A stretch of 64,000 nucleotides of DNA from a virus. Lineage: Duplodnaviria > Caudoviricetes. The notes under the pieces were generated by a model. The model was not told the origin of the DNA and searched no databases. It worked only from the letters and a program-made list of their open reading frames with translations. Below, piece by piece: positions 5,533 to 49,010 of the stretch. The position numbers and the translations under genes were made by a program. The stretch lies in the IMG/VR virus record IMGVR_UViG_3300050336_000030, one strand, 5' to 3'. Within the stretch, counting starts at the first letter, position 1; every line of letters starts with the position of its first letter.

Positions 5533-5673
5533 TAGAAGAATTAATTATGTGGTTACTAGGAATAGGAATTGTTGGATACATATTATATTTAGTGATAGAA
5601 AATGGATTATATTTACATAAAAAGTATCAAAACAATAGATAAAATATGGAATTGCTTCAGAAAGGAGATTGCT

Positions 5674-5859
5674 TTGAGAATTAAATATTTAATTATAAAT
5701 CTTTTTTATTTATTATGTATTATTGGAACAATTACTATTCCTACTGGAATAATATTATGGATATGGGTCGCTGGTAATTTGGGATTAAAAATTGCCGTAA
5801 CTGGAATTATTATTAGTGTTATATCTTATGGAATTGCAGAAGCTTTAGAAAGTATTTAA
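5674..5859 (+). CDS. small membrane protein
   Basis: Two hydrophobic segments; TTG after AGAAAGGAG. Confidence 0.6.
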   Translation: MRIKYLIINLFYLLCIIGTITIPTGIILWIWVAGNLGLKIAVTGIIISVISYGIAEALESI

Positions 5860-6088
5860 ATTTGGAGATTTGTCTAGAAAGGAGAGTATTGTTATTAAAA
5901 AAGAGAAGAAATGTAAAAATTGTATATTCTCTAAGTATTTACAAGGAGAATCAATACTAGCATCAGGATATATATGTTACAAAAATCCATTTAAACCGAA
6001 AGGTAAGGGATTATTTGGTGGTTGTGGAGATGATAAAGAAAAACAAATGTGAGTCAAATGGAAGTTTTGTAGAGAAAGGATGGGATAA

Positions 6089-6376
6089 ATGAATCCGTAT
6101 AATATGGATGAAAGTAAACAAGATTTAGTTAAACTAGAAGCATTATTTAATGCTCAAGTTGATACACAGGTAATATTGCAGCTTTTGATTGATAAAGGAA
6201 TATGCACTAGATCAGAAATTAATTTACATAGAGAAAAAGTTAAGGAATTACCTAAATATAAAGCCACTGCTGATTATATCAAACAATCTAAAGAAACGGT
6301 TGATTATTATAATAAAAATCCAGAACAACATCTAAGAGATATATTTAAGGCAAAAATGGATGGAAAGATAAAATAA
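6089..6376 (+). CDS. hypothetical protein
   Basis: ORF with RBS, bounded by sites 6053 and 6373. Confidence 0.7.
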   Translation: MNPYNMDESKQDLVKLEALFNAQVDTQVILQLLIDKGICTRSEINLHREKVKELPKYKATADYIKQSKETVDYYNKNPEQHLRDIFKAKMDGKIK

Positions 6377-6405
6377 AAACTAATTTTGATTAAGAAAGGA
6401 ATAAA

Positions 6406-6675
6406 ATGTTTGAATATAAAGACATATATGGGACTCCATGTTTTACAAATGATGGTTGGAAAACTTGTCAAATTGGAATTAAACATCCCGATATACAATA
6501 TATTGGCGATCTTAGTAATTTAAATATAACTGATAAAAATACATATATTGATCAAATTAATTATTATATGGAACATCCAATAGAGTTTATAGAAATGTCG
6601 ACTGGATTAAAATTAAAATGGTATCAAAAATTAGTACTTAAAACAACTTTAAAAAATAATAAAAGGAGGAATTAA
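6406..6675 (+). CDS. hypothetical protein
   Basis: ORF with RBS; C-terminal HPIEFIE...GLKLKWYQK. Confidence 0.65.
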   Translation: MFEYKDIYGTPCFTNDGWKTCQIGIKHPDIQYIGDLSNLNITDKNTYIDQINYYMEHPIEFIEMSTGLKLKWYQKLVLKTTLKNNKRRN

Positions 6676-6677
6676 TT

Positions 6678-6890
6678 ATGCAAGAATTTTCAAGATATGA
6701 ATGTGATTTATTAACAAATTGTGCAGACGAACCGGAGAGATATGGAATTAATATTAATAGTAAAACAAGTGAAGTAACGATAACCGATAAATTACATAAT
6801 AAAAATTGGAGATTAGGAAATGAAAAAGATGTATTGGTTAAATTATTTAGATATTGCCAGATAGAGCCATCCTTTAAAATTAGTAAATAG
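6678..6890 (+). CDS. hypothetical protein
   Basis: ORF with GGAGG RBS. Confidence 0.6.
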   Translation: MQEFSRYECDLLTNCADEPERYGININSKTSEVTITDKLHNKNWRLGNEKDVLVKLFRYCQIEPSFKISK

Positions 6891-6969
6891 TGATAGTAAT
6901 ATAAAACAAATACTTGACACATTATAAAATAAGTGATAATATAATATTGTAGTGATAGTTATATGAAAC
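6890..6969 (+). promoter_or_regulatory. early promoter bracketed by two operators
   Basis: GTGATAGTAATATAAAAC, then TTGACA(6914)-17-TAATAT, then GTGATAGTTATATGAAAC. Confidence 0.75.
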
Positions 6970-6984
6970 GTAACAGAAAGGAAA

Positions 6985-7260: not shown

Positions 7261-7699
7261 AAGAAAGGTGGATTAATATGCAGTATTTATTTAATGAAAA
7301 AGAATTTGAATCATATAAAAGAATGAAAAATGACAGAGAAATTAATTTAAAAGCTTTGGAATTATATCTTGAAAATAATAGTGGCAACAGAAGTATGTTA
7401 AAGGATAGACCGCTATTTGAAGAAGATAGGAAGAAACATAAAGAGGAAAATAGCAAATAAACTGTTTGATTTATTGAGAAAGGAGAATATATTTGGATCA
7501 AAAAATATTAATTAGTTATGCAAAATATGGGTTGGTAGTTCTAATAAAAGAAAATGAAAATGCTGAATTGATAGAAAGACATTACGGAAATGATATAGAA
7601 GCGGAGCAAATACATAAAGAGAATCTGGTTTTTAAAAATGATTTATTGGAATTATCAAAGTAAAATACGGATTCTACGTATAAAATGAAAGGAAAATAT

Positions 7700-8044
7700 A
7701 TGAATTTAAATAAAAGATTAACAGATAGACAATCTGGTGGTATTTGCATGGATGATATTGAAAAAATTATGGAAAAATTAAAGTTTTTTGAAGATACTTA
7801 TGAAGATGGTAAACTCTTAATTTTACCTTGTAAAATAGGTGATGAAATATATTACATAGAGGATAAATATATAAGTTGTTCTGGATGCCCGTATTTTGAT
7901 GATGAAGATAGTTGCGAACATCAAGATAGATGTCCTCAGACAATTAAAAAGATTAAATTTCAGCATAGTATGATTCCTTTTATTAGAACATCATATTTTC
8001 TCACAAAAGAAGAAGCTGAAAAAGAGTTTAATAAATATCTATAA
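7700..8044 (+). CDS. hypothetical phage protein (RLT...FED family)
   Basis: Paralog of the genes at 10164 and 35359; LLILPCKIGD...FLTKEEAEK. Confidence 0.65.
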   Translation: MNLNKRLTDRQSGGICMDDIEKIMEKLKFFEDTYEDGKLLILPCKIGDEIYYIEDKYISCSGCPYFDDEDSCEHQDRCPQTIKKIKFQHSMIPFIRTSYFLTKEEAEKEFNKYL

Positions 8045-8074
8045 AAAACTGATTTCATGAAGAAAGGAAAAAAT

Positions 8075-8344: not shown

Positions 8345-8388
8345 TAATATGAAACGTGAAATTTATAGAGAAAAAGAAAGGATAGAAA

Positions 8389-8604
8389 ATGGAAGAAAGA
8401 CTTAGAGTAGAAAAAGCGTTCAAAGATTTAGGTATAAAGATAAAGAGGTTTAGAAGATATAAATCTACATATAGCATATTGAACAGTTTGTCTAAAAAAT
8501 GGAATAAATTGACCAAGGATGATAAAGAACATTATTCTAAAGAAATAGCAGGAGATAAAGATGCTGTCGCATTTAGACATAATATGGATCAAAAAACAAC
8601 ATGA
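8389..8604 (+). CDS. hypothetical protein resembling a tape-measure repeat fragment
   Basis: LGI....YKSTY.IL..LSKKW..LT......IAG. Confidence 0.55.
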   Translation: MEERLRVEKAFKDLGIKIKRFRRYKSTYSILNSLSKKWNKLTKDDKEHYSKEIAGDKDAVAFRHNMDQKTT

Positions 8605-9105
8605 AATCATTCTTCAATTAAGTTATAAGAAAGGAAGCAATATGAAAGATAAAATAAATACGTTTTTAGCATTAATGATTCATTTCTTCGCAATACTATG
8701 CATCGGAGAGGGGGTTGGAGAATTCATAATAAGCCGAAAAGTTACATGGTGCACTTGGCTAAATTTTATTAGTTGTATTGTATTTATATGTTTATATGCA
8801 TACATATCATTTAAGAGTGATATAAAACGAAATGAGTAATTACGTCAAAGAAGAGCTTTGATGAGATTTAATGAAAGGAGACTTTATGTTAGTTAAAGTA
8901 AAATTAATAAGTGATTCTAGTCTTCAGGAAATGTTCCAAGATGTAATTTCAATTACTTCTACATATTATAATTATGTTATTGTAACGGATAAAGCTGCAG
9001 TTGGTGGAGCAAAGTTTTTTGACAAAGAAATTTACTATTTAGAAGTATGCAATTAAAAGACTATAAAAACAACAATCTATGGTCAATTTGAAAGGAGAAA
9101 GTAGA

Positions 9106-9546
9106 ATGAACAATAGTAATGAAGGATTTGTAATATTGACAAATATGATTAAATCAGCCGTAGACGACGTTATGGCATTAGATAACGCTCTTACTGATTT
9201 AAAACAAGAAACAAATAATATTGACAATATAGTAAGAATTAATGGAAATGATTTTACAGACTACGACAAAGCAATAGAATATATAAATAAATTGAAAAGT
9301 AAAGAAGTTGAGAAATGGTATTTACATGATGTTGATTTATTTGGCATAGGTTATGCAATTATGAAATGGTGCCAGGCTAAAAATGTATATTATAACGAAA
9401 ATATACTTAAATCAGCATTAGATGAATATTCAGTAAAATCAGGTGTAATTGGTAGTAATTTTGCTAAAGATGTTTTGCATCTCTATAATAAGATTTCTTC
9501 TTTACCACAGTTTAGAGGAAAAAGATTTGAGGGATTAGTACGATAG
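9106..9546 (+). CDS. hypothetical protein
   Basis: ORF between sites 9063 and 9543. Confidence 0.65.
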   Translation: MNNSNEGFVILTNMIKSAVDDVMALDNALTDLKQETNNIDNIVRINGNDFTDYDKAIEYINKLKSKEVEKWYLHDVDLFGIGYAIMKWCQAKNVYYNENILKSALDEYSVKSGVIGSNFAKDVLHLYNKISSLPQFRGKRFEGLVR

Positions 9547-9597
9547 AAGAGGCATTTTATGCGAAAATTAAAGTTTGATGAAAGGAAATAGAAATTT

Positions 9598-9843: not shown

Positions 9844-9883
9844 ACTGAAAGTGGCATAAAATAGAAATTTGGAGGTGATTTAA

Positions 9884-10132
9884 ATGAAAATGACAAAGGA
9901 AGAATTTATTGAGAAGTGCGGTAATGATATTACATTGATGTCAAATGTATCAGGAACTTCTACGGAAGAGTGTGCGGAATCTTTATATGTTACCTATTGT
10001 AGTTTCAATATTGACGAAGACAAAGCAAATGATATTATTGACAAGTTATCAAATTTACCACTTGAGAACCCAGTAAGTGTAAAAGAATTGGAAGATGGAC
10101 TCAAAAACGCAATGAAATATGTTACCAAATAG
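9884..10132 (+). CDS. hypothetical protein (tape-measure-like fragment)
   Basis: ORF with GGAGGTG RBS; LMSNV..TS.EE.A..L......NI....A..IIDKL. Confidence 0.6.
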   Translation: MKMTKEEFIEKCGNDITLMSNVSGTSTEECAESLYVTYCSFNIDEDKANDIIDKLSNLPLENPVSVKELEDGLKNAMKYVTK

Positions 10133-10163
10133 AGGATTGATGCTAAATTTAGAAAGGAGTTTA

Positions 10164-10466
10164 ATGGAGCGATTAACTGATAAAGATGGTCTAAAGGCTT
10201 GTTACTGTAATGGTAAATATTTTGATAAATTAAATGGTCAAACAGAATGTAAACATGAATGTCAACCAATACATGATGCTTTAATAAAATTGCAGCAATT
10301 TGAAGATTTAGAAGAAAAGAATTTAATTGGATGTGCCAATGGTGAGTTAGAAAGAGATTGTAGAAATTGTGATAACATGAGTAGTTGTATAGAACTATTT
10401 GGGTTTTATATCGATGCTAAGAAATGTAGCAGATTTAAATATATAAATAAAACAGAATCAATGTGA
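10164..10466 (+). CDS. hypothetical phage protein (MERLT family)
   Basis: MERLT...KL..FEDLEE. Confidence 0.65.
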   Translation: MERLTDKDGLKACYCNGKYFDKLNGQTECKHECQPIHDALIKLQQFEDLEEKNLIGCANGELERDCRNCDNMSSCIELFGFYIDAKKCSRFKYINKTESM

Positions 10467-10527
10467 TATTTGATTGTGAGTTTAATGTTCCCGACATTGA
10501 TGTCGGAAAGATAGAAGGGAGAATTAA

Positions 10528-10779
10528 GTGGGACAGTATAGCGAAAAGGTAAATAATACGCCAAAACAAAAGAAAATTAAAAAGAAGTTAGAAGAATTAG
10601 GACATACAAATGTAGAAGTTTGGTGGGAAAAATTGCAACCTGCTTGTGAAATGTGTGGTATGGGCGGTGGATATATTTTTTGTTCAGATCAAGAACAAGT
10701 GTATCCTCTTGGATATTCTCTCGAAGATGCCTTATATTCTATTGAAAATTATAAATGGTTAGATGTAAGAGATAAATAA
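10528..10779 (+). CDS. hypothetical protein
   Basis: ORF ending at site 10776. Confidence 0.6.
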   Translation: MGQYSEKVNNTPKQKKIKKKLEELGHTNVEVWWEKLQPACEMCGMGGGYIFCSDQEQVYPLGYSLEDALYSIENYKWLDVRDK

Positions 10780-10839
10780 ATCAGGTGTTTTATTCACATT
10801 ATAAATAAGAACTATATTAAACAATAAAAAGGAGGATAA

Positions 10840-11544: not shown

Positions 11545-11613
11545 TTACATATAAAATATAGATTGAAATACACATAAAATCAAAGTTTGGTTTGCACTTC
11601 GGGAGGTGATGAA

Positions 11614-12271
11614 TTGGCAAAGAGGAAAGAAACGTTAGAACTAGAAGAGGCATTAACTAAAAACACCAGAGAAAAACGTATTTATGGTTGTGAAGAAATC
11701 ACAATTGGATTTTACAATAATGGACATGGCAATGAGATAGTAGATTTTATGACTATGGATTTTAAAGGAGTAATTAAATGCTATGAACTAAAAGTCACTT
11801 TACAGGATTTAAAGTCTAAAGCAAGGAAATCGTGGTATGGTCATTATAATTACCTTGTAGTTACTAGAGATTTATATGATTCAATAGATGATTGGAATAC
11901 ATACATACCAAAATATGTTGGAATTATAGTAGGTAACAATTTATCGATCGTAAAGAAACCAATAAGACAAGAAATTGGGATTGACACCGAAATGATGTTA
12001 AAAGAAAGTATGATACGTAGCATCTATTGGAAGATAGATAAATATAAAAATGCGAATAACTTAGATAAACAAAAAAGAATTAAATTCTAAGATTCGTAAA
12101 GCAGAAAAAGATAGAGATGAATATTATAAGAGGGCTATTAGTGCTGAGAATATTATTAGCGAATACGAAACATACAAGTCTTATAATGACGGATTAGATG
12201 ATTTTGATTTAAAAGTTGCAGCAAAAGAAGAATATGAAAAATATAAAGTGAAACGCAATAATTCAAGATAG
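11614..12271 (+). pseudogene. MmcB-like PD-(D/E)XK nuclease with a +1 frameshift near 12071-12076
   Basis: E...VDFM...CYELKVTLQD.KS motif; frame stops at 12090, but removing one A from CAAAAAAG opens it to TAG 12269-12271, which coincides with a cassette site. Confidence 0.6.
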
Positions 12272-12329
12272 AATTGCCGTTTCATTTACAAAGAATAAAT
12301 AAAACAAATATAAAAGGAGATTAAAAAGT

Positions 12330-12980
12330 ATGAAAGGTTTAAATGATTATACAAATGAAGAATTATCAATGTTAACAGATTCTGAGATTGAAAATTTAAT
12401 TGACGTAGAGTGTATGAAAGCCGGAGTTCCTTTATCTATTACACCAAAGCCTACACTAAAAGAAGTACCTGAAATTAAAGATCCTACAACTGAAATTTTT
12501 CAGGTAGATAATTATTATTTTACTGATAGCAAAGAAGCTAATCAATTAGCTACAATGTTATCTTCGATTACATCAAGAGTAACACTTGATTATAATTATA
12601 ATTCTGGTAGTAGTAATTACAAGTACTATAAGAAATACGAAACTCCTACAGACATTAAAAAGACTAAATGCTATTCAAGAGAAGAATATAATGATTTAAC
12701 AGATATTTTAAAGGCAAGAAAAGACATTGAAGATTATAATAGAAATATTACAAAAGAATATGAAGATGCTGTGTCGGAAAGAAGATATATTGTTGATTCT
12801 GTATGGGATGCTATTAGTGAAGCTCAGTATGAAATGAGAAAAATCAATGAAGCTCTTGATATTTTTAAGAAATATGTTGAATTGTCAGATGGAGACGAAG
12901 AAATCGCGAAGAAGTTCTTTAGTCAAAATGAAAAGGTTTCAGAATATATGGATGATATATTAAAGAGGTATAGTAAATAA
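12330..12980 (+). CDS. hypothetical protein
   Basis: 216-aa ORF with RBS, ending at site 12977. Confidence 0.75.
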   Translation: MKGLNDYTNEELSMLTDSEIENLIDVECMKAGVPLSITPKPTLKEVPEIKDPTTEIFQVDNYYFTDSKEANQLATMLSSITSRVTLDYNYNSGSSNYKYYKKYETPTDIKKTKCYSREEYNDLTDILKARKDIEDYNRNITKEYEDAVSERRYIVDSVWDAISEAQYEMRKINEALDIFKKYVELSDGDEEIAKKFFSQNEKVSEYMDDILKRYSK

Positions 12981-13013
12981 AATCGTCGAATTTATGAAGA
13001 AAGGAGAAATATT

Positions 13014-13629: not shown

Positions 13630-13983
13630 ATGAAGATTTATTCATCAGATGGAAAAGAATTTGGAAAAGATAATATGACTATGGAAGAATTGGCGGATGC
13701 TTTTAAAAAATGTAGTACATATGAGGAAGAATTAAATAGTAAAAAAGCTAAAGCTGAAGCTGAAAAGAAAGAGAGGGAACAAAAGAAAAAGATTTTATAT
13801 GAGCAGATTAAATCAGAGATGGATAAAATTAATAAATTGCTAGATGAATATAAAAAATCTGATGGCAGACCTCTTTGGGTTGGATGTGATAATGGAAAAA
13901 TTTATGTAGATGAATATATTTCTTGTTCAAGTCTAAATTATGATTGGGTGAAAAATTTTAGAGAAGCATTAGAAAGTTTATAA
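13630..13983 (+). CDS. coiled-coil hypothetical protein
   Basis: ORF with RBS. Confidence 0.65.
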   Translation: MKIYSSDGKEFGKDNMTMEELADAFKKCSTYEEELNSKKAKAEAEKKEREQKKKILYEQIKSEMDKINKLLDEYKKSDGRPLWVGCDNGKIYVDEYISCSSLNYDWVKNFREALESL

Positions 13984-14062
13984 ATCAAGTTTTTTATTTA
14001 GAAATTATAGTAATAGTAATGTGAAACATAAAAATAATACATATTAAAGGAGAATAAAGAAT

Positions 14063-15310: not shown

Positions 15311-15386
15311 AATTTAGTTGAGCGAAAGCTATTTCAAATAGATAATTAATTTTTAGTTGTTAAACAAAAAGGAGGATTATTGTATT

Positions 15387-16544
15387 ATGGCTAATTATGG
15401 TAAGAAAAATAAAGTAAAAGATGGACTTGAAAACTATTCAGTAGCTCTTTTTGGTGAAAGTGGAATTGGTAAAACTACACTGATGTATGAAGTTTGCGAG
15501 AAATTATTCGGTTCAGATGGATATATGATATTCAATGCAGGTAAAGAACAGGGTATTGATTGTTTGGAAGATGCATCATATGAAGATATTGAAAATTTCA
15601 AAAAATTTGACGCTGTTGTTTCTGATATTATAAAAAATAAAAAATCTGATTATCCAGATTTAAAAGTAGTTGTATTAGATACTCTAGATCAAATCATTGA
15701 AATTGTTGAACCTGAAATAGTAAGACGTTATAATTCTGAAAACCTAGGAGTAAAAGATTTTAAACCAGCAAAAACAATCAATGGAGCTTATGGCGGTTTT
15801 CAAAATGGTCAAGATGAATGTATTAAATTAATCTTGAATAAAATATGGGATTTACAAAGTGTTGGAGTGCGAGTTTGGTACACTGGACACGTTAAGACAA
15901 AAGAGTCAATTGATCCTTATACAAACATGTCGTTTACATCTTTGTCAACAAATATTTCTAACAAGTATTTAAATGGATTTAAGACAAAAATTCATGCATT
16001 AGGAATTGCTTGTATTGACAGAACAATTGAAACAGAAGATACAGGAAGAGAAAACATTGTTACCCACAAGAAAATTACAGTAAATAAAGTAAAAGCGGAG
16101 AAAAGGAAAATAGTCTTTAGAGACGATAATTATTCAGTCGATAGTAAGTCAAGACTTGCTGATATTGTAGACGAAATATCTATGGATTCTGATGCATTTA
16201 TTAAGGCAATTGAAAATGCTATTGAATCAGCAAAAAATAAAAAAGTAGTAAGTAAATCAAATACGTCTAAAAAGAAGTCAAATAAAACTTATGATGAAGA
16301 ATTAAGTGATGATAAAGAGAATTTAGATGATATTGAAAATACTAATGATATTGATGACGTATTACTTGATTCAGAGAACAGTAATTATCCAGAAGATTTA
16401 GTTGAAGAAACAAGAGCACTATTTCAAAAATGCAAAGACAATGTGCTAAAAACTGAAGTAAGAGAAACAGTTAAATCGTTTGGTAAATTTACCGACGTTC
16501 CAGAAAATGAACTAAAATCATTATACGACAAATTGTCTAAGTAA
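15387..16544 (+). CDS. AAA-family ATPase (Sak4/YorG-like recombination protein)
   Basis: GESGIGKTT Walker A; VVVLDTLD Walker B; TGH. Confidence 0.8.
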   Translation: MANYGKKNKVKDGLENYSVALFGESGIGKTTLMYEVCEKLFGSDGYMIFNAGKEQGIDCLEDASYEDIENFKKFDAVVSDIIKNKKSDYPDLKVVVLDTLDQIIEIVEPEIVRRYNSENLGVKDFKPAKTINGAYGGFQNGQDECIKLILNKIWDLQSVGVRVWYTGHVKTKESIDPYTNMSFTSLSTNISNKYLNGFKTKIHALGIACIDRTIETEDTGRENIVTHKKITVNKVKAEKRKIVFRDDNYSVDSKSRLADIVDEISMDSDAFIKAIENAIESAKNKKVVSKSNTSKKKSNKTYDEELSDDKENLDDIENTNDIDDVLLDSENSNYPEDLVEETRALFQKCKDNVLKTEVRETVKSFGKFTDVPENELKSLYDKLSK

Positions 16545-16589
16545 TACATATTAACTACTAAAGGGTTCAATCCCCTTTAGTAGTATTAG

Positions 16590-17075
16590 GTGGTGATAAT
16601 AATATTAGTAAAATGTAAATCATGTGGAAATAAAATAGAAAAAGATAAAGCATATAAGGTTACTGTGTCAGGCAAAAACTCTTATTATTGTAATAAACAG
16701 GAATATGAAACAATAGTTAAAAATAGAGAATTAAAAAATAATACATATGAAATAATTTATCAAATATTTCAACGTGAAGTAACAAATACAGCTTTATTTA
16801 AAGAAATTAATTCCCTCGTTGAAGTTTATGGATATGAAAAAATTTATTTGTATCTGATAGATAATAAGGAATATTTAATAAGTGTTTTACAAAAGTCTTT
16901 CCAAAATGAATATTCAAAAATTCGATATTTCTCAGCTATTTTAAGAAATTCGTTAAGTGATTATTCGATACCCGAAAAAAAAGAAGAAAAAGTAATTGAA
17001 ATTGAGTTTGTAAATATGGATAAGCAAACAATCAGGAAAAGAAGAATATTAGCAGATATGGAGGATGATTTATAA
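16590..17075 (+). CDS. Zn-finger replication protein (YorH-like)
   Basis: VKCKSCG...YYCN; located before the helicase. Confidence 0.6.
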   Translation: MVIIILVKCKSCGNKIEKDKAYKVTVSGKNSYYCNKQEYETIVKNRELKNNTYEIIYQIFQREVTNTALFKEINSLVEVYGYEKIYLYLIDNKEYLISVLQKSFQNEYSKIRYFSAILRNSLSDYSIPEKKEEKVIEIEFVNMDKQTIRKRRILADMEDDL

Positions 17076-18639: not shown

Positions 18640-19653
18640 ATGCTCGAAGATATTAAGAGAGAACTGATTAATAAGCCTGAAAAACTGAAATCTTTATTAG
18701 AATATTATTGTTATGAAAATATAAAAATCAGAGATAAATATATTCAATTTGGTAGAGATGAGTACTCATCACAAAAATCAATAACTATTAAACTTGATGA
18801 TAATCCATATCTTTATGTTAAAGATTGGGCAAGAAATATATCGCAAGATTTAATAAATTATATTATAGAACAACGAAAAGTTGAATTTATAGATGTTATG
18901 AATTCAATTAAAACCATTCTTGGCATAATTGATTATTATAACCACTATGAAGAAAGAGGAATATTTGGTGGAATTTATAACAACATAAGAAAAATTAAAG
19001 AAAACAAATTGAATACATATAATAATAATTTTTTAAATTCATATAACAGAATAGGAAATTTGCGATTTCTTCGGGACAATATTTCACTTGAAACTCAAAA
19101 ATATTTTGAAATTGGATATGATATTGAAACACAAGGAATTACAATTCCAATTCGTAGTCAACTTGGAGAATTAATTGGCGTAAAGATAAGAGTTAATTAT
19201 GATGTAGAAGATGGAGAACAAAAGTATTATTATTTGTTGCCATGCGCAATGAGTAAAACATTGTTTGGCTATTCACAAAATTATAAGTACTTAGTTGGTA
19301 ATACAATATACATATTTGAAAGCGAAAAATCGGTAATGCAATGTTATTCATATGGAATTAGAAATTGTGTTGCATTGGGGAGTGGAAGTATTAGTAATCA
19401 GCAAGTAAAAATGATATTAGAATTAAATCCTAAAAGTGTTATTTTTATGCATGATTATGGATATGAGTTTGAGAATATTATTGCAAATATTAATAAACTG
19501 AAAAGATATTCAAGGTTTAATGATTTTGACATAGGCTATTGGGATTGGAAAATAAGGAAATTTGATAAAAAATATTCTCCATCTGATTTAGGAAAAGATA
19601 TTTTGATAAAAATTATTGAAAATGAAATAAAAATATATAATGGAAAGGAGTAG
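18640..19653 (+). CDS. DNA primase (TOPRIM, YorJ-like)
   Basis: ITIPIR...G..IG...KY...IFESEKSV...ALG...D. Confidence 0.8.
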   Translation: MLEDIKRELINKPEKLKSLLEYYCYENIKIRDKYIQFGRDEYSSQKSITIKLDDNPYLYVKDWARNISQDLINYIIEQRKVEFIDVMNSIKTILGIIDYYNHYEERGIFGGIYNNIRKIKENKLNTYNNNFLNSYNRIGNLRFLRDNISLETQKYFEIGYDIETQGITIPIRSQLGELIGVKIRVNYDVEDGEQKYYYLLPCAMSKTLFGYSQNYKYLVGNTIYIFESEKSVMQCYSYGIRNCVALGSGSISNQQVKMILELNPKSVIFMHDYGYEFENIIANINKLKRYSRFNDFDIGYWDWKIRKFDKKYSPSDLGKDILIKIIENEIKIYNGKE

Positions 19654-19693
19654 GAGTAATAAATAGTTAAGTGTTTATTACTCTTATTATAAA

Positions 19694-25254: not shown

Positions 25255-25306
25255 TTAATAAAAGTTAAATTCTATCTGCATATTAGTAATAAAAAAGGAG
25301 AAGATT

Positions 25307-28597: not shown

Positions 28598-28645
28598 GAA
28601 AATGCACATAAAACACTGTTTTTATGCGGTTAGAAAGGAGATAAA

Positions 28646-30050: not shown

Positions 30051-30089
30051 ATTGTTAACAGAATCGGTCTTTTATATAGAAAGGAAAAT

Positions 30090-30566: not shown

Positions 30567-31092
30567 CAAACCAAATTGTGAATTCATTTTGAAAGGAGGC
30601 AGAAAATGAAAAAATACGAATGTGTTAATGATTTAAATGTAGACTCGGATAAAGATGGTTTAACTTATGTATGCGGAGCGAAATACACAAGTGATAGTTG
30701 CATAATCAGAAAAGAGGGATATTGTGATTTCGGTTATTTTGATAAAAATACAAACACAATACGTTGTAGTAGTATAGATTATTTGAAAAAAGTATAAAAT
30801 CAATCATTTATATTGAAAAGAGGATATATGTTTAAAGCAAAGTTTAAATCAGGAGTATCAGAATCAGTATTATATTTTTATGATTGGATGGTCGAAATTG
30901 AAATATATGATACAAAGATAATTGACAATAGTACATTTTTCTTAGTAAAGCCTTTATATGTTATTAAAAATAAAAAGTGGATATGGTTAAACAGTAATTT
31001 ATTTATTTGATAGGCTGCATTTAGTGCTTAGTGAACTCTAGGTATTAGGCGTAGATTGAAGATAAATATAACATAAAGAAAAGGAGTCTATA

Positions 31093-31377
31093 ATGAAATT
31101 TCTAAATTTATGGAATAGGATAGGAAAACAACCAATAAAAGATACAAAGAAATTAGATGTGGTGGTAGAAACAGAAGATGGAAGATATATAGTCACAAAA
31201 ATCAATTACTTAAATGGCAAATTGTATAGCTTACAGGCAGAACGAATTACATGTAATAACTGTAAAAATTCACCTCAAAATAACAATGGATATTGTCCTC
31301 CACATACCTGTGATATATGCACATCGTTGGATGAGGAAGAGGAGTTTGGAATGTGGAACTTTAAACAAAATAAATAA
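31093..31377 (+). CDS. Cys-rich hypothetical protein
   Basis: ORF with RBS, ending at site 31374. Confidence 0.65.
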   Translation: MKFLNLWNRIGKQPIKDTKKLDVVVETEDGRYIVTKINYLNGKLYSLQAERITCNNCKNSPQNNNGYCPPHTCDICTSLDEEEEFGMWNFKQNK

Positions 31378-31955
31378 AACAGTTGATTTATAAAGAAAGG
31401 AGATAATTATGGGATTAGATATAGTTAGTATTTTTAATCCACCCAAAGTAAAAGGGTTTGATTACGAAAACATTGAAAGGGATATTATGCAGTGGAAAAC
31501 TGATATTGAAGAAATGTTAAAAGTTAATAAATACGACATGAATAATTTATGTGTCAACGAGGTATTAGGAACTGTGATTTGTTTAATGCAAGATAATACA
31601 ATATATGAATAATAAAAGGTCTTATGATTACTTTGAAAGTGAGGAAGTTATATGGGAAAGAAAGATATGTCTAAAACCTGCGGATTTAAGGATGCTGAAA
31701 TGGATTATATGGCAGGAAAAGAAATTACATATGAAGAAACAGAAAAATGGTACGACGAAAATTGCAGACAGTGTATATGGGCTAGTGATATTTGTATGTT
31801 TGGAGAAGAATAAATGAAAAAATGTAAATATTCAAATAGTAAATGTACGGATTGTAAATTATGTGAACCAGAAATCGAATTAAATGAAGAACAAATGATA
31901 GTTATATTAAACATTATTGAAAGTGAAGAAAATAAAAAAAGAAAGGATAACATAG

Positions 31956-33544: not shown

Positions 33545-33794
33545 AAGGGGAATGTTATGACTGTCAAAGAAGCAAATAATATAATTACTGAAATTGAATA
33601 CATAAGAAATGAGTTAAGTATATATACGGGAGAACACAAGGCAGAGTTAGAAAAAAGTTGTGATTTTTATACTGCTTTAAAAGAATCTTTCGACTACTTA
33701 AATGATTATAAAAAGATATTAGAAAAGAAGATTTTAGATGCAACATTAGATATATGAAATTATAGTTTTATACTATTAGAAAGGAAATTGAAAA

Positions 33795-34488: not shown

Positions 34489-34948
34489 ATGAAATCAGGG
34501 ATTTATTATGAATGGAAAAGGAGTGGGTAATATGTATAGTGAACAATTAAAAAGAGTAGCAAATGAACTAGAAAAATTACGATTAGGTATTTATCAAGAA
34601 ACTGAATCAGAAGAATTTCACCAAGAAGTTGACGATGAGTTATTTTCTTTACAATCGCAAGTAAGGAGTGTTGCAGAAAAAGTAAGTTGGTATGAGTAAA
34701 ATAACTCTTTTATCAAGAAAGGAAGTGAAAAATTTGATTTATTCAATAATTTACATAATTATAGCATTGACTACAACCGGATTATTATATTGGTTTTTAT
34801 ATGATAATAACGATAGCGAGATAATAAGTATATTTGGAGGAATTGTATTTCCTTTAACAATTATTATTCTTTTGTTTAGTTTACCAGTGTTATGTGTCAA
34901 TAAAATAAAACAACGTAAAAGTTGAGTTTCATCGAGAAAGGAGTCAAG

Positions 34949-35314: not shown

Positions 35315-35358
35315 ACAAATCAATGGTTCTATGATCTTACTTGAAAGGAGAAAATAAG

Positions 35359-35679
35359 GTGGAGCGATTAACTCAAAAGCAAAGTAATGGATATGACTTA
35401 ATTAGAATGAATGGAGATTGGTGTAATAATTATTGTGAAAAACAAGCTATAGAAACATGTAGAGATTGTACAATATTTGAAGCAATCCAAAAGTTAGCTA
35501 AATACGAAGACTTAGAAGAAAAACTATATAGTTTATGTAGAAACGATGACGAAAACATTGTAGAAAACATCATTAATATCTTTATTGAAACAATATTCCA
35601 GGGACAAAAACATGAAGGATTCGAAATCTTAACTAATGAAGACGCAGCTCTGTATAATGAATGGTTAAAGACAATATAG
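35359..35679 (+). CDS. hypothetical phage protein (ERLT family)
   Basis: VERLT...KLAKYEDLEE. Confidence 0.65.
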   Translation: MERLTQKQSNGYDLIRMNGDWCNNYCEKQAIETCRDCTIFEAIQKLAKYEDLEEKLYSLCRNDDENIVENIINIFIETIFQGQKHEGFEILTNEDAALYNEWLKTI

Positions 35680-35774
35680 AATGTGATTTTTATTAAGAGA
35701 TAGAAATATGAAACGATACTAAAATAATCCTGCCTAAACAGATTTATATAAATATAACACATAAGGAGGTAAAT

Positions 35775-39364: not shown

Positions 39365-39661
39365 ATGACAATCGAAGAAAGATATATGAAATCTTCAGAT
39401 AGAGGCGAATTCAAGTATGAAGTATTAGAAGCAGATGAATGGACTGGAAGAATCGCATTAGAAGAGTGTATTTATAACGGTAAATCAGTGGGTACAATAA
39501 GAAATAATTGTGGTGAATATGAAGTAGAAATAGACAATCTTATAAATGATCCTGTTTATATTTTTGAAACTAGATCATCTCGAAAATTAGCTAGACAATT
39601 ATTAGAGCGAATTATTAATAACGATATTTCTAATAATGGAAAGAACAATAAATATAGATAA
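39365..39661 (+). CDS. hypothetical protein
   Basis: ORF between sites 39327 and 39658. Confidence 0.6.
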   Translation: MTIEERYMKSSDRGEFKYEVLEADEWTGRIALEECIYNGKSVGTIRNNCGEYEVEIDNLINDPVYIFETRSSRKLARQLLERIINNDISNNGKNNKYR

Positions 39662-39691
39662 AAGTATATTTCGATAATGAAAGGAGTTTGT

Positions 39692-41405: not shown

Positions 41406-41428
41406 AAAATAAATGAAAGGAGAAGAAA

Positions 41429-43097: not shown

Positions 43098-43620
43098 ATA
43101 AATTTAAGGTATCTATCAAAACTTTAGAAAGGAAAAATTAATAATGAAAGACGAAAAACAGCGTATGTACGCATATTATGAAAATATGATGAAAAATAAA
43201 TGTTATACAAGAGGTATAGATGATAGCAAGACTAAAAGCAAAGTATTAGCTACCAAAAGAGAAAATTATTTTAATCCAGATGATTGTTATTTTGCTTATG
43301 TCAGTGAATTACCATTTGGAACTTGCTATGTTGATTCAGAATAATTTGATCAAAGATACAATTTATTAAGAAAGGAGAATCAGATGAACGAAGATAGATT
43401 GATTGGTTCATTCGTTATTAATAACAATTCATATTTTGAGTATCCAGACGGGACTAAAATTTATTTAAACGAAATTATTATTGATGCTTATAAGAGTAAA
43501 TTAAAAGACTATTGTAATAATTGCAGTTATATGATGAATGATTGTGATATTAATGGAAAGTGTAAAAAATTCAGCCCACTATATAAATGATGTATTTGAA
43601 ATAGAATTGAAAGGAGTAAT

Positions 43621-44832
43621 ATGAAAGCAATTAGAACAGAAATACATATACTTAATCGGGGTCACCCTATGTGGAAATCCTGTGATGAATTATGTTTTCA
43701 ATCAAAAAATATGTATAACCTGTGTAATTACACGATAAGACAAGAGTTTATATCTAGTGGTAAAGTGATGAAATATGGTGACCTGAATAAGATTCTTAAA
43801 AAAACAGATACGTTTAAAGAACTTGGATCAAATTCCGCACAAATGGTTACTCAAATATTATGTAAATCGTGGAAATCATTTCTTGTAGCGGTTAAAGATT
43901 ACGCAAAAAATCCTGATAAATATTTAGGAAAACCAAGAATACCAGGATATAAAAAGAAAGATGGTAGATTTATTTGTACACTAACAAATTGTCAAACAAG
44001 AATAATTGATGGCTATTTACATTTTGGATTTAAACGATTGCATCCATATAATAAAATGTTTAAAACAAAAGTTGATGGATATCATTTATCAACTAGAATA
44101 GTTCCAAGTGGCGGTTGTTACGTACTAGAAATAGTTTATGAAAAAGAAATAGAACAACTAGACTTAAACAAAAATAATATTGCATCGATAGATTTAGGAG
44201 TAAATAACTTTGTAACAATGGTAAATAACATAGGCATAAAACCTATTGTTATTAATGGCAGAGGTATTAAATCTTATAATCAATACTGGAATAAACAAAT
44301 TGCAAAATATCGAAGCGTTCTAAAGAAAACAAATAAACTCGATTGGAGCAAACGACTTCAAAGGATGACGGATAAACGTAATTTCAAGATGGATTACTTC
44401 ACGCATTGTGCTTCTAAGTATTTAGTTTGGTATTGTATTAACAATGATATTGGAACGATTGTTGTTGGTAAGAATAATAGATGGAAACAAGAAAGTAAAA
44501 TGTCTACTACAAACAATCAGAAGTTCATTCAAATACCATATGATTTGTTTATTAAAAAGTTGAAATACAAGTGTGAAGAAATAGGTATAAACATCATTGA
44601 AAATGAAGAAGGATATACTTCTGGAACATCTTTCTTAGACAATGAAGAACCTATTAAATCAAATTACAATAAGTCAAGAAGAATACATAGAGGATTATTT
44701 GAGAGCAACAATGGTATTAAAATAAACGCAGATTGTAATGGTGCATATCAAATAATGCGGAAAGTATTCTCAAATGTAAACGCAAATGAGATAGTGGATG
44801 TACATTTACATCCGGTAATTATAAATCTTTAA
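43621..44832 (+). CDS. tnpB: TnpB RNA-guided endonuclease (IS200/IS605-IS607 superfamily), no adjacent TnpA
   Basis: SKNMYN; RuvC residues D (IDLGVNN), E (EEGYTS) and D (NADCNGA) all intact. Confidence 0.9.
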   Translation: MKAIRTEIHILNRGHPMWKSCDELCFQSKNMYNLCNYTIRQEFISSGKVMKYGDLNKILKKTDTFKELGSNSAQMVTQILCKSWKSFLVAVKDYAKNPDKYLGKPRIPGYKKKDGRFICTLTNCQTRIIDGYLHFGFKRLHPYNKMFKTKVDGYHLSTRIVPSGGCYVLEIVYEKEIEQLDLNKNNIASIDLGVNNFVTMVNNIGIKPIVINGRGIKSYNQYWNKQIAKYRSVLKKTNKLDWSKRLQRMTDKRNFKMDYFTHCASKYLVWYCINNDIGTIVVGKNNRWKQESKMSTTNNQKFIQIPYDLFIKKLKYKCEEIGINIIENEEGYTSGTSFLDNEEPIKSNYNKSRRIHRGLFESNNGIKINADCNGAYQIMRKVFSNVNANEIVDVHLHPVIINL

Positions 44833-44895
44833 TTACAAAGTTTAAAAAACAACATAAATGAGTCGTTTTATCTTGATTTAAGAAAGGAGCAAAGA

Positions 44896-45841: not shown

Positions 45842-45853
45842 TTTGGAGGTGAT

Positions 45854-46042: not shown

Positions 46043-46175
46043 GATTTTGATTAACAAGAAATACATAAATAATATTATATTATAATAGTTAATAATTTAG
46101 AACCAAAATATTGAATTGACATATAATAATCAAGTAATAGTAATATGTAACATAAATATAAGTCGGAGGATTATT

Positions 46176-46748
46176 ATGAACGAAAAATTTAATTATAATT
46201 TTTGTAAATATTCTTATGGTAAAAAAGAATTTGATTTTGATAGGTGTTATAAATGTGAAAAAACATGTCCTAGTGTAAGCAATTTACTTTGGACGATTCC
46301 AATAATAAATCAAATTAATAGTTTATATCACAAGATTTCTTGGAATTTTGAAGCAAAGAAATATGAAAAAGATAGTATAAATGAATACGAAACAAAATCA
46401 ACGAAACATATATGGGGAATTAAATCCTGGGACGATTTAACGGGTAGCGATTGTAATTTATACACAATGAATGATATAGATTTAATTTATTGTAAAGACA
46501 CAGACGATTACGTAATTAGTATTGAAACAATTTATGATTTTAGATCAGAAAATGGAGATAAAAAGTATCTACAAGAAATATTAGGAGCTTTCACACAATG
46601 GATGAATAATAATGGATATCAAACCAATCATAATCTTTTATTACATGAGATATTTACAAAAGGATATAATATTAATACTCATTTTAAAACAATAGAAGAA
46701 TGTTATGCTAATTTTAAATTATTAGTAAATGGATATTGTAATGCATAG
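46176..46748 (+). CDS. hypothetical protein
   Basis: GGAGG RBS; flanked by operators. Confidence 0.7.
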   Translation: MNEKFNYNFCKYSYGKKEFDFDRCYKCEKTCPSVSNLLWTIPIINQINSLYHKISWNFEAKKYEKDSINEYETKSTKHIWGIKSWDDLTGSDCNLYTMNDIDLIYCKDTDDYVISIETIYDFRSENGDKKYLQEILGAFTQWMNNNGYQTNHNLLLHEIFTKGYNINTHFKTIEECYANFKLLVNGYCNA

Positions 46749-46774
46749 AGATAGCGATATGAAACGATAAGGAT

Positions 46775-47530
46775 GTGATGATTATAAAATTTATGGGTTC
46801 TAAAAGCAGAATTGCAAAGTACATCGTTCCAATTATTCAACAATACATAGATGAAAACAATATAGAGTACTATTATGATTCGATGTGCGGCGGATGTAAT
46901 GTAATTGATAAAATTAAATGTAAACACAAGTATGCTTCGGATATCCAGGAATATTTAATTGAATTATATAAGAATCTCGACAAAATAGATGAGTTACCTG
47001 AGATGGTTACGAGAGAACATTATTCTGATGTACGAGATTGCTATAATAAAGGATTAGATAAATACCCAAAGTGGTATGTTGGAATGGTTGGATTTTTAGC
47101 AAGTTATAATGGACGTTTCATGTCAGGAGGATATTCAGGCATAGTTACCACTAAAACTGGAAAAGTAAGAAATTATTATGATGAAGCAAAAAGAAATCTT
47201 GAAACACAAATACCAAATTTACAAGATATAGAATTTTCATGTATGGATTACAGGAATTTAAAACCCAAAGCGCGATCAGTTATTTATTTAGACCCGCAAT
47301 ATAAAGACACAAAACAATATGAAATGAGTAAAAACTTTAATCACAAAGAACTGTGGCAATGGGTTAGAAATATGAGTAAAGAACATACAGTAATAGTAAG
47401 CGAATGTCAAGCACCAGAAGATATGACTTGTATATGGCAGCAAGAAGTATTAAGGACAGTAGATAATACCAAAAGAGTTAAAAGTACAGAGAAGTTATTC
47501 ATATATGATAGTAATATGAAACGAAAATAA
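46775..47530 (+). CDS. Dam/D12-class N6-adenine methyltransferase
   Basis: KFMGSK, MCGG, IYLDPQY (variant of DPPY), VSE. Confidence 0.8.
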   Translation: MMIIKFMGSKSRIAKYIVPIIQQYIDENNIEYYYDSMCGGCNVIDKIKCKHKYASDIQEYLIELYKNLDKIDELPEMVTREHYSDVRDCYNKGLDKYPKWYVGMVGFLASYNGRFMSGGYSGIVTTKTGKVRNYYDEAKRNLETQIPNLQDIEFSCMDYRNLKPKARSVIYLDPQYKDTKQYEMSKNFNHKELWQWVRNMSKEHTVIVSECQAPEDMTCIWQQEVLRTVDNTKRVKSTEKLFIYDSNMKRK

Positions 47531-47547
47531 AAACTAAGGAGCCAACG

Positions 47548-48252
47548 ATGAGAAGAAAAAGTTTACTAAGTGGCAGCATTATTGTTATTGCCACGACAAC
47601 ACTTCTAATCTCTGAGTGGAGGGCACAATCACAACCGTCTTCCGTTCAATATGAGAGCAGAAGACTAATATCAATACAGAAAGAGGTTTATTATACCAAT
47701 CCGGTGATTAGTAAACCGGAGCAAACGTCAGAAGACGATGATTATAAATCTATTACTGTAACACCCACCCCTATAATAGTCGGAGAACGTGAGCTTGTTG
47801 GAATTGGTAGCACATTAGTATCCGACTTAAAGATAGAAAAGAAAGTTGAAAAACCTGTAATAAAAAACAGATGGAACATAGAGTTAACGGATGATGAAAT
47901 AGATTTACTTGCAAGAATAGTATGGATAGAAAGTCGTGGAGAAAGCGACGAAGGAGAATGTGGAGTAATTGAAGTTATATTAAATAGAATGATACATTGG
48001 GATTTTAAAGGTAGCTTATATGATGTGCTAAGTAAAGATGGAGAATTTTGTTCATGGAGTTTAAGAGACAAAGCAGAACCGACAGAGAAAGAATACAAAA
48101 ATATCAAAAAAGTACTCAATGGAAAAACAGATATTTTAGGGTCTAATAAAGTTTATTTTTCTACCAGTCCAAGAAATGATATAAATCCAAAACAAATAGG
48201 AAATCATTGGTTTTGTGACTACGAATATACAAACAAAGAAGATAAGAGGTGA
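47548..48252 (+). CDS. SleB/Hydrolase_2 cell wall hydrolase with N-terminal signal/TM segment
   Basis: LLARIV..ESRGE...VILNR...F; IGNHWF. Confidence 0.8.
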   Translation: MRRKSLLSGSIIVIATTTLLISEWRAQSQPSSVQYESRRLISIQKEVYYTNPVISKPEQTSEDDDYKSITVTPTPIIVGERELVGIGSTLVSDLKIEKKVEKPVIKNRWNIELTDDEIDLLARIVWIESRGESDEGECGVIEVILNRMIHWDFKGSLYDVLSKDGEFCSWSLRDKAEPTEKEYKNIKKVLNGKTDILGSNKVYFSTSPRNDINPKQIGNHWFCDYEYTNKEDKR

Positions 48253-48671
48253 TACATATTAGAGATTTTTATGATACAGATAATGAGGAAAAATATTTAT
48301 ATGAAGAAAGACATTCATTAATTGAAGTAAATAGATGCAAGCACTGTGGCTGTCCGTTGATAAAAATGAATGAGTGTGGTGAAGCCTGGGGTAGCGATTA
48401 CATAGAAGAACTTTGGATTTGTCCGGTCTGTGATTAAAGGAGGTATTACATATGGGAGTATTGGTTATTTTAAGTGCCATTGCTTTAGTTGTTATAGTAT
48501 GTGCTATAGCTGCAAGCATTGGAGATGATGAACTAGAAAGAGTTAATCAAATCAATAAAGCTACATTGGAAGATTGTTTATTCAATAATATATTAGGATA
48601 TAGTGCAGTTATTGAAAATGGTAAAGTAGTGGATTTTATTAACGAAAGAGATGAATTTATCAAATAACTAT

Positions 48672-48718
48672 ACACAATATATAGTGGTTAAAGAAATAAT
48701 AAACACAATATATAGATA
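48672..48718. promoter_or_regulatory. tandem NrdR-like boxes (pair 3)
   Basis: ACACAATATATAGTGG and ACACAATATATAGATA, 31 bp apart. Confidence 0.65.
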
Positions 48719-49010
48719 TAAAATATGCATGAAACTAACGTTTTATCAAGATAAGAAAGGATATTATTAATATGAACAATAATTATTGGTGTACACATAA
48801 AGAATTACAGTCAATAGATGATATAAATAGATGCACATTAGGAAATAATGGGTTTTACGATGTAACATCTTATTATAGATGCATGTGTTGTGGAAGAAAA
48901 ATTAAAAAGCACGAACATCAAGAAGGTGATGAAAATGGAATTACAAAATCAATAATAACAATTGAAGTAATAAGTTAACCAATGGAGTATTTGGTTTAGA
49001 AAGGAGAAAA

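Follow-up and report, generated by a model that had tools for sequence, protein, structure and literature searches.

Why the mosaic borders of phage genomes fall so precisely at gene boundaries is an old question, in which random illegitimate joins followed by selection have been set against special 'linker' sequences. The core sites of tyrosine recombinases consist of partly symmetric arms around a 6–8-bp central region of strand exchange (PMC5357621). We analyzed a 64,000-nucleotide stretch of a Caudoviricetes genome (IMG/VR record IMGVR_UViG_3300050336_000030; the window, whose positions are used below unless a genome coordinate or another contig is named), in which an earlier note, made from the letters alone, had reported integron-like arrays of degenerate inverted repeats at the ends of accessory genes. 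These repeats are 18-bp sites with the consensus AYVRAW-N6-WTYBRT (6-bp arms, 6-bp centre), placed between a stop codon and the next Shine-Dalgarno (SD) sequence, although some have no SD after them. The comparisons presented here suggest, with a probability that we put at roughly 0.6, that the sites are ordered, fixed crossover joints parting exchangeable genes or small gene groups in an SPbeta-like clade. The window covers bases 64,937–128,936 of a single 139,975-bp phage contig (terminal overlap 55 bp, 28% G+C). The phage is of the large SPbeta-like type (~140 kb), with a gene order matching SPbeta yopQ-yopR and yorF-yorL; its early arm consists of plus-strand genes from genome 41 kb to 118.6 kb, and the remainder runs leftward.

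Xer/dif sites and the dif modules of Acinetobacter plasmids are closer to this element than integrons are. In the Acinetobacter modules (pdif; PMC6449649, PMC13141974), as here, many short core sites with two arms and a 6-bp centre border accessory modules, module content varies among relatives and exchange has been deduced mainly by comparison. However, pdif sites have asymmetric 11-bp XerC and XerD arms, lie in inverse orientation around modules and use host enzymes, whereas the phage sites have 6 bp per arm, are quasi-symmetric, carry private centres in a fixed order and come with a phage-encoded candidate enzyme in a 115–140-kb phage. In XerH/difH and XerS/difSL (PMC5357621, PMC5241119) the left arm is A-rich at its inner end and the right arm T-rich, as is the case here; the left arm of difH ends in ATGAAAA, and XerH is the best solved relative of the phage recombinase. 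Xer/dif systems have one site per replicon for dimer resolution, adjoining the recombinase gene where a single recombinase is used, while the phage has dozens of sites per genome and none beside its recombinase gene.

Other phages offer further parallels. The promoter-early stem-loops (PeSLs) of T4-type phages (PMC2839356, PMC4122927) are likewise short conserved non-coding elements that bracket variable small open reading frames (ORFs) in hyperplastic regions, and close relatives differ at these elements. They combine a sigma-70-type promoter with a terminator stem-loop, resemble one another within a genome and are thought to recombine through their homology, including in cis as mini-circles; the phage sites, in contrast, span 18 bp and have no promoter, no stable stem and mutually different centres. 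Dozens of short intergenic or start-site sequences also occur in temperate genomes as the stoperators of cluster A mycobacteriophages (PMC9283540) and the start-associated sequences (SAS/ESAS) of cluster K (PMC3203893). Stoperators are asymmetric, orientation-dependent 13-mers of one consensus, identical to the promoter operators, and ESAS are 17-bp repeats with one consensus per genome; neither has ordered private centres, and unlike a stoperator the phage site is symmetric, the promoters carrying an unrelated repeat, GTGATAGTTATATGAAAC. Integrons share with the phage arrays a site at the 3' end of promoterless ORFs, degenerate arm boxes and a tyrosine recombinase. An attC site acts as a folded single strand whose paired boxes covary, and cassettes are excised and reinserted at attI beside intI, whereas the phage sites show no sign of folding, covariation, excision or reinsertion. 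SPbeta (NC_001884) has TAAAA-N6-TTTTA junction palindromes with the same word and placement, the same YopP, YopQ and YopR positions and a yorF-yorL-type replication module. It holds 29 intergenic TRAAW-N6-WTTYA matches against 2–5 at most other spacings (20 at N10), and the present genome holds 23 against 0–8 (13 at N10), although its clade differs from SPbeta in having the looser arms AYVRAW. Some SPbeta copies are annotated merely as stem_loop in NC_001884, and literature searches found no published function for them.

We evaluated the enrichment of the sites with the pattern AYNRA-N8-TYNRT. Between 5639 and 48995 it matched 70 times, compared with 30–54 matches for other spacers (0–20) and 42–43±7 (maximum 63) in Markov-1 to Markov-3 simulations of the same interval. 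Half of these matches (35/70) were gene-end matches, lying between 25 nt before and 60 nt after a stop codon, where other spacers gave 3–15; in 12 the stop codon fell within the left arm, against 0–3. The intergenic DNA of the early arm (94 segments, 8.3 kb) contained 36 sites, whereas other spacers gave 3–14 and shuffles 6.8±2.7 (maximum 15), corresponding to a density of 4.3 per kb against 0.77. In coding DNA the N8 density was 0.83 per kb against 0.92, so there is no excess there. The excess is entirely junctional and is confined to the N8 spacing. Sites stand at 42 of 143 early-arm genes (about a third) and, in a weaker excess, at 13 of 83 late-arm genes (1–10 for other spacings). Counting gaps of 18 nt or more as junctions, a site is present at 9 of 17 in the block at 5.6–14.1 kb, 1 of 4 in the replication block, 10 of 15 at 25.2–39.7 kb and 4 of 9 at 42–49.1 kb. 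All six sites that the earlier note had quoted as examples are found where it placed them, but its total of about 48 is too high because about 35 strict matches are background inside genes; we count ~27 strict junction sites in 5639–48995 plus three variants (one N9, two with G at position 1). Some listed matches are coincidental, such as that at 8349, which overlaps the promoter-linked repeat. Promoter hexamers are absent from the 18-bp site; promoters sit in separate, longer gaps with their own repeat. A secondary intergenic excess at spacer 12 (17 in this genome and 11 in the relative L105m, against ~3–7) may reflect overlap of ATAAATAAA left arms or else a second class of site; SPbeta has a matching secondary excess at N10 of the TRAAW form (20).

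The shape of the site extends beyond what the search pattern selects. Among 35 curated sites, position 6 is A or T in 34 and position 13 in all 35, while T is absent from position 3 and A appears once at position 16. This symmetry at the unselected columns 3/16 and 6/13 describes two inverted arms around a 6–8-bp central region, as in tyrosine-recombinase core sites; beyond 6 bp per arm the columns are at background except for an A-rich stretch on the coding side. Left arms without a stop codon (ACCAA six times, ATCAA, ACAGA, ACAAA) occur at N8 from an SD-linked right arm at least 14 times, against ~1.6 expected. Both arms draw on the same set of variants, making the sites quasi-symmetric, so no XerC/XerD polarity can be assigned. 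As first described, the arms vary independently: Watson-Crick pairs between arms number 164 against 158.8±4.0 in permuted arm pairs (409 against 406.6 when pooled over 90 sites), and perfect 6/6 arm pairs number 4 against 5.2 expected. The corresponding hairpin of 5 bp and 8 nt has a mean energy of +0.84 kcal/mol and falls below zero in 7 of 45 cases, and an Rfam search reported no family at the sites, returning a tRNA-Thr only. Since the arms show no covariation and the hairpin is unstable, a selected RNA stem and an attC-like folded strand are ruled out. The data support the view, also taken in the earlier note, that the sites fit duplex DNA read by a dimeric protein better than an RNA stem.

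We then asked which relatives carry the sites. Megablast of the phage collection gave no match to this DNA, scans of IMG/VR, genomes and metagenomes by DnaE returned distant kin only, in which the motif excess is absent (L092, 75% DnaE; L110, 67%; contig G001:C62, 64%), and a scan for the promoter-linked repeat gave only chance single matches. Relatives were reached via homologues of the 146-aa product of 9106–9546, which led to lineages that share the PemK / YopQ-like / MrpR head and the early arrays: L096 (second haplotype L095), L098, L103, L105/L113 and L107. L109 was found via its DnaE homologue, and L112 was chosen by recombinase homology alone. Intergenic N8 sites number 42 in the present genome, 14 in L096, 11 in L098, 10 in L103, 24 in L105/L113, 9 in L107, 11 in L109 and 13 in L112, with mostly 0–8 matches at other spacings across the eight lineages (1–6 in L112). 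Seven related lineages carry the same junction sites, whereas more distant kin do not: there is no N8 excess in L092, L110, the whole 158-kb contig G001:C62, L008 or L010, of which L010 (29% G+C) and G001:C62 (28.6% G+C) serve as AT-rich controls. The clade is a low-G+C branch (28–31%) known from metagenome-derived contigs only. A further genome, L006, has 20 N8 matches, which were taken as chance, all being inside genes. The gene at 30090–30566 is common to the unrelated phages L008–L013, where its neighbourhood lacks sites and total N8 counts show no excess, as in ordinary gene-level mosaicism.

To compare the centres, we pooled 134 sites from the eight lineages and used 500 column-preserving shuffles as the null. 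Identical 8-nt centres occurred between lineages 19 times, in 14 families, against 1.4 expected and a shuffle maximum of 5–6, and identical central 6-mers 36 times against 4.3. Within one genome, no pair of centres came within one mismatch, where 5.1 such pairs were expected (P=0.004). Fourteen of the 42 sites in the present genome have a partner in the small samples of relatives, including those at 8041, 9543, 10776, 11574, 25258, 28608 and 35676. As controls, the 8 nt upstream of the left arm gave 5 recurrences against 3.0, in-gene pattern matches gave 1 against 1.25, and the SD-containing 8-mer recurred 14 times within genomes and 14 times between them, compared with 0 and 19 for the centres. 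A limited vocabulary of centres was rejected on this last comparison, since their recurrence is solely between genomes. Likeness of junctions through gene duplication was also rejected, as the genome has no paralogous or duplicated cassette proteins.

Common sites keep their order, with 38 concordant pairwise comparisons and 1 discordant, and their surroundings differ. In 11 of the 14 families there is no protein similarity on either flank, and four direct comparisons of flanking proteins gave a best E of 72 (a 2-residue match) and nothing at E≤100 in the other three. Among individual joints, protein comparison gave no alignment at E≤100 for the ORFs downstream of 9543 and L098:9695 or upstream of 10776 and L098:10691, and the reading frame upstream of 12268 shows no similarity to the L098 RNA ligase; the L096 junction orthologous to 9063 (at 9960) also has a site. 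Taking one pair per family, identity is 11/11 across positions 5–14 and near background at the variable arm positions and beyond. The comparison of relatives that the earlier note had called for shows the private centre kept while arms and flanking genes change. The centres outlive their neighbouring genes and form an ordered scaffold of dyad sites, with replacement borders at or beside the centre. Because the centres are private and collinear and their flanks unrelated, the sites behave as fixed crossover joints between exchangeable genes.

Mosaic edges and exchanged cargo could be followed in several pairs. L098 and L107 share blocks at 85–92% identity, one of which starts at an arm/centre border (position 5|6), with ATAGA in one and AGCAA in the other before the same centre atagaggt, and stops at right-arm positions 16–17 of the next site; a third edge is alike. 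The joints at 25258 and 28608, 3350 bp apart, enclose a three-gene RNA-repair block (RlaP, CCA enzyme, DHHA1), while in L109 the same two joints are 516 bp apart with one unrelated 137-aa ORF between them. What lies between two shared joints varies from a single ORF to three genes. The 146-aa gene is bracketed by sites both here and in L096, next to different genes in each; in L098 and L107 one or both of its borders carry a site. Finally, L095 differs from L096 by a 537-bp deletion between 15-bp direct repeats, of which one copy is a junction site and the other a look-alike within an ORF; in L095 the deletion ends in the centre of the site.

We searched the genome for an enzyme that could act on the sites. 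It holds two Phage_integrase genes, one by a tRNA-Thr and one Xer-like, and no serine recombinase. The Xer-like gene lies ~5 kb upstream of the window, inside the early arm rather than at the head of an array; among PDB structures XerH matches it best (E 7.5e-16), and the match to IntI4 is partial (E 4e-5). R184, K210, H277, R280, H303 and Y313 are invariant in five homologues at 49–58% identity, which amounts to a full catalytic set. In the present genome, L112 and L113 the gene stands a few kb upstream of the PemK / YopQ-like / MrpR genes. The site excess in L112 was found although that lineage had been selected through the recombinase only, and G001:C62, which lacks the sites, has no recombinase orthologue (best match 26% identity). 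In named phages no close homologue exceeds 34% identity, and no dif-like master site was seen beside the gene. Of the candidates proposed in the earlier note, the YopP-like gene outside the window therefore stands, with all catalytic residues, and the protein at 2784–3794, which it had suspected to be inactive, was rejected as the acting recombinase: it is of the MrpR type (23% identity to SPbeta YopR, E 4e-8) and has N, in G-N-E, at the position of Arg I. This agrees with the role of SPbeta MrpR, which is a repressor and not an enzyme (PMC10516654). We tentatively suggest that the Xer-like recombinase at the YopP position may act on the sites.

We regard directed crossing over between matching joints of two related genomes as the simplest mechanism, and as a probable one. 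Exchange would take place when two related genomes meet, either by co-infection or when a phage meets a prophage. A tyrosine recombinase dimer would bind the two arms and cut at both borders of the centre, and strand exchange would be completed only with a partner site of the same centre. Everything to one side of the joint would then be swapped, with no broken gene, each SD kept with its gene and the order intact. Such matching between partners would explain both the conservation of centres between genomes and their avoidance within one; as every centre occurs once per genome, the prediction is that related genomes trade segments and that a single genome is not reshuffled. Gene modules would be exchanged frequently and at gene boundaries, with no deletion or inversion and with the order retained, and the over-dispersion of centres within a genome would be the footprint of selection against recombination in cis. 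The set would be comparable to mutually incompatible lox variants, each tagged by a private 6-bp centre. It is conceivable, though doubtful as yet, that SPbeta-like phages may in this way carry a natural exchange system of dozens of heterospecific core sites and a YopP-type recombinase that joins matching sites only.

Several points weigh against directed joints. The arms alone are too weak for specificity, because only 6 bp are conserved per arm (Xer ~11) and in-gene matches occur at ~0.8 per kb. Other L098/L107 edges are placed at a start or stop codon or immediately past the SD, and several shared joints have 8–25 nt of extra conserved non-coding flank; because of this flank, and because the phage has a Sak4-like annealing protein, short-homology recombination could give the same picture. 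The fixed 3-nt distance from right arm to SD hints at a role in expression, and the recombinase could instead resolve multimers of a plasmid-like prophage. Its co-occurrence with the sites amounts to three positive lineages and one negative. The L096-to-L095 deletion carries little weight, as simple slippage explains it: direct repeats of this kind are common (seven of ≥14 bp within 2 kb, in 20 kb of L096). Much of this favours the chief rival, that the sites are operator-like punctuation for a dimeric DNA-binding protein, for instance with a roadblock or silencer function similar to that of stoperators. They would then be conserved islands of 10–23 identical bases between variable genes, and exchange would be a by-product of Sak4-type short homology, as has been suggested for PeSLs. 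Dyad symmetry with independently varying half-sites is expected under this explanation; the sites occur at gene ends within operons, including places that lack a following SD (13980, 35676, late-arm sites), a Sak4-like AAA_24 protein is encoded in the window, some block edges fall outside a site, and stoperators (PMC9283540) and PeSLs (PMC2839356) provide precedents. We nevertheless consider it unlikely, because a regulator reading the arms gives no reason for an unread centre to be better conserved between phages than the arms are, and leaves the over-dispersion of centres within a genome unexplained. Nor are operator and stoperator paired, as the repeat at the early promoters is a different one, and the identity tracts, often 10–15 bp, are short for recombination by an annealing protein.

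In ~14 of 26 SD-linked sites a gap of 3 nt separates the right arm from a downstream GAAAGGA, and at least 12 sites include a stop codon in the left arm, which would suit an mRNA element: a weak hairpin or bipartite protein-binding element at the stop/SD that tunes re-initiation, translation or processing of early transcripts, in a position like that of SAS/ESAS, themselves inverted repeats upstream of start sites (PMC3203893). The far stronger excess in the co-oriented early arm than in the late arm points the same way. Yet the arms do not covary and the hairpin is weak, a single-stranded reader does not explain reverse-complementary base rules in both halves without pairing, sites also occur where no SD follows, Rfam has no match, and private centres kept in order while genes change are left unexplained; we regard this explanation as improbable. 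Still less probable is a literal integron, whose dedicated integrase would capture single-gene cassettes carrying a 3' site, release them as circles and change their order within the array. In its favour, co-oriented and mostly promoterless ORFs have a site at the 3' end, the genome encodes a tyrosine recombinase and one 537-bp deletion ends in a site. Against it, the sites do not form an attC-type fold, neighbouring sites are not expected to support excision when no two share a centre, site order is conserved (38:1) rather than shuffled, cassettes are not duplicated, units run from one ORF to three genes and often comprise several, and the recombinase is nearer XerH than IntI. The part of the earlier note that read the arrays as integron-like capture, excision and shuffling of single-gene cassettes is therefore not upheld. 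A by-product of composition is scarcely credible. In a 28% G+C genome, A-flanked stop codons and AT-rich leaders could in principle produce the motif, given that the pattern is degenerate (~40 chance matches in the range) and that ATAAA, ATAGA and ATGAA, as left arms, each consist of a stop codon between two A residues; it is refuted by the excess at N8 only, the shuffles, the absence of excess in the equally AT-rich L010 and G001:C62, the non-stop left arms and the symmetry of unselected columns.

Non-coding punctuation that outlives its flanking genes is evidence for directed joints across a phage clade, and the shape of the site together with a conserved, intact recombinase points to a site-specific mechanism. 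If the logic of private centres is true, it would account for the turnover of accessory genes in large temperate phages with the essential order left intact, and it would provide a natural set of orthogonal recombination sites. The idea is directly testable in Bacillus subtilis, because SPbeta has the same word and the YopP recombinase in the same position.

Table. Junction sites and landmark genes, in window positions unless marked as genome positions; junction sites are symmetric and carry no strand.
Feature	Position	Strand	Remarks
ATAAA-aactaatt-TTGAT	6373..6390		Stop codon in left arm; SD 3 nt past right arm
ATAAA-ctgtttga-TTTAT	7457..7474		Stop in left arm; SD 3 nt on; central tgtttg common to L098:6818 and L107:5166
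ATAAA-aaactgat-TTCAT	8041..8058		8-nt centre identical to L107:6940; flanking ORFs unrelated
ATGAA-atcattct-TCAAT	8601..8618		TGA stop in left arm; SD 10 nt on
ATAAA-aacaacaa-TCTAT	9063..9080		Upstream of the 146-aa gene; central 6-mer identical to L105m:23876
ATAGA-agaggcat-TTTAT	9543..9560		TAG stop in left arm; same centre at L098:9695; 1 mismatch at L105m:24869
ACCAA-atagagga-TTGAT	10124..10141		Stop codon in spacer; SD 10 nt on
ATCAA-tgtgatat-TTGAT	10457..10474		Perfect 5-bp arms; TGA stop in spacer
ATAAA-tcaggtgt-TTTAT	10776..10793		Central 6-mer common to L098:10691 and L107:10676
ATAAA-atcaaagt-TTGGT	11574..11591		8-nt centre identical to L098:11834, L107:11151 and L109:960; flanking ORFs all unrelated
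ATAGA-attgccgt-TTCAT (probable site)	12268..12285		239-nt gap; same 8-nt centre after the L098 RNA ligase gene
ATAAA-N9-TTTAT (variant)	12977..12995		Stop in left arm; SD 3 nt on; spacer 9 nt
ATAAA-tcaagttt-TTTAT	13980..13997		Stop in left arm; followed by promoter-linked repeat, not SD
ATAAA-agttaaat-TCTAT	25258..25275		Left border of RNA-repair module; same centre at L109:13945
ATAAA-acactgtt-TTTAT	28608..28625		Right border of RNA-repair module; same centre at L109:14461, left arm there ACCAA
ACAGA-atcggtct-TTTAT	30058..30075		Left arm not stop; SD 3 nt on
ACCAA-attgtgaa-TTCAT	30570..30587		Left arm not stop; SD 3 nt on
ATAAA-atcaatca-TTTAT	30794..30811		Stop in left arm
ATAAA-acagttga-TTTAT	31374..31391		Stop in left arm; SD 3 nt on
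ATGAA-attatagt-TTTAT	33754..33771		TGA stop in left arm
ATGAA-atcaggga-TTTAT	34489..34506		Begins 1 nt past stop codon
GTAAA-ataactct-TTTAT (variant)	34696..34713		G at position 1; SD 3 nt on
GTAAA-agttgagt-TTCAT (variant)	34915..34932		G at position 1; SD 3 nt on; among the examples quoted earlier
ACAAA-tcaatggt-TCTAT	35315..35332		Begins 1 nt past stop codon
ATAGA-atgtgatt-TTTAT	35676..35693		Stop in left arm; 8-nt centre identical to L103:5103, arms and flanks differ
ATAAA-agtatatt-TCGAT	39658..39675		Stop in left arm; SD 3 nt on
ATCAA-agatacaa-TTTAT	43349..43366		Left arm not stop; SD 3 nt on
ATAAA-tgagtcgt-TTTAT	44854..44871		22 nt past stop of TnpB-like gene
ATGAA-actaacgt-TTTAT	48729..48746		SD 8 nt on
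ACCAA-tggagtat-TTGGT	48978..48995		Perfect arms; first base is last base of stop codon; SD 3 nt on
ATAAA-tagacaaa-TTTAT	53650..53667		Convergent early/late junction; overlaps stop codons of both converging genes
Xer-like tyrosine recombinase, 328 aa	genome 59,248-60,232 (window -5,688 to -4,704; L111:14249-15235)		YopP position
PemK/MazF-type toxin gene	1031-1438		Pfam E 4e-21
YopQ-position protein, 415 aa	1537..2784	+	Translationally coupled to repressor gene; weak match to SPbeta YopQ, E 7e-4
MrpR (YopR)-type recombinase-fold repressor	2784..3794	+	Pfam MrpR_N_CB E 4e-13
Sak4-like AAA_24 protein	15357-16544		Replication block
tRNA-Thr	51786-51858	-	Rfam search
Conventional phage integrase	52236..53453	+	Pfam Phage_integrase plus SAM_3; adjoins tRNA-Thr

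The PemK-type gene is the head of the PemK / YopQ-like / MrpR-like block, which is conserved in every related lineage for which the region was recovered (not L098 and L107); no antitoxin partner was identified for the toxin, and the 415-aa YopQ-position protein is kept in all related lineages. The replication block encodes, besides the Sak4-like protein, a DnaB-like helicase, a RecJ-like DHH protein and DnaE. Other genes of the window include the RlaP/CCA-enzyme/DHHA1 block, NrdD, three DNA methylases and a TnpB-like gene. The 239-nt gap at 12090–12330 resembles coding DNA with no called ORF and has a junction site at its end. At two junctions of the replication block (16544–16590 and 19653–19694) stable hairpins stand in place of the 18-bp site, one with a 12-bp stem containing G+C and the other a perfect 10-bp inverted repeat, GAGTAATAAA-N10-TTTATTACTC, whose core is arm-like.

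A second repeat family, (G)TRATAGTTATATGAAAC, has ~25 copies, all along the direction of transcription. It forms pairs at 4435, 6890+6952, 13345+13408, 25127+25237 and 41277+41388, with further copies at 8338, 14010, 35697, 46748 and 47505. The pairs bracket sigma-A-type promoters, with one copy just upstream of TTGACA and one downstream of the -10 box, and the repeat is probably the operator of the MrpR-type repressor (2784–3794), by analogy with SPBRE of SPbeta. Relatives have a promoter-near repeat of their own, ATAACATATAAAACAAT or TAATATAAAACT, in L098 (2920, 3543, 6011, 6396), L107 (4366, 4750) and L105m (13486, 16522, 17482). It differs from that of the present phage, as would be expected if repressor specificity diverged.

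The recombinase gene is followed by a small HTH_3 gene in L112 and L113, and here by a promoter-like TTGAAT-17-TATAAT. Two diverged TnpB-like (OrfB_IS605) genes, at 43621–44832 and at genome 63,100–64,341, have their own SD and are embedded as ordinary array genes; TnpB genes also occur in the early arrays of L103, L105 and L112. In the L095 haplotype, a Mu-like transposable element (DDE transposase, TniB-like ATPase, GemA; from L095:12119 onward, also in L097, L099 and L100) is inserted 18 nt past a junction site and parts an early gene's SD from its start codon.

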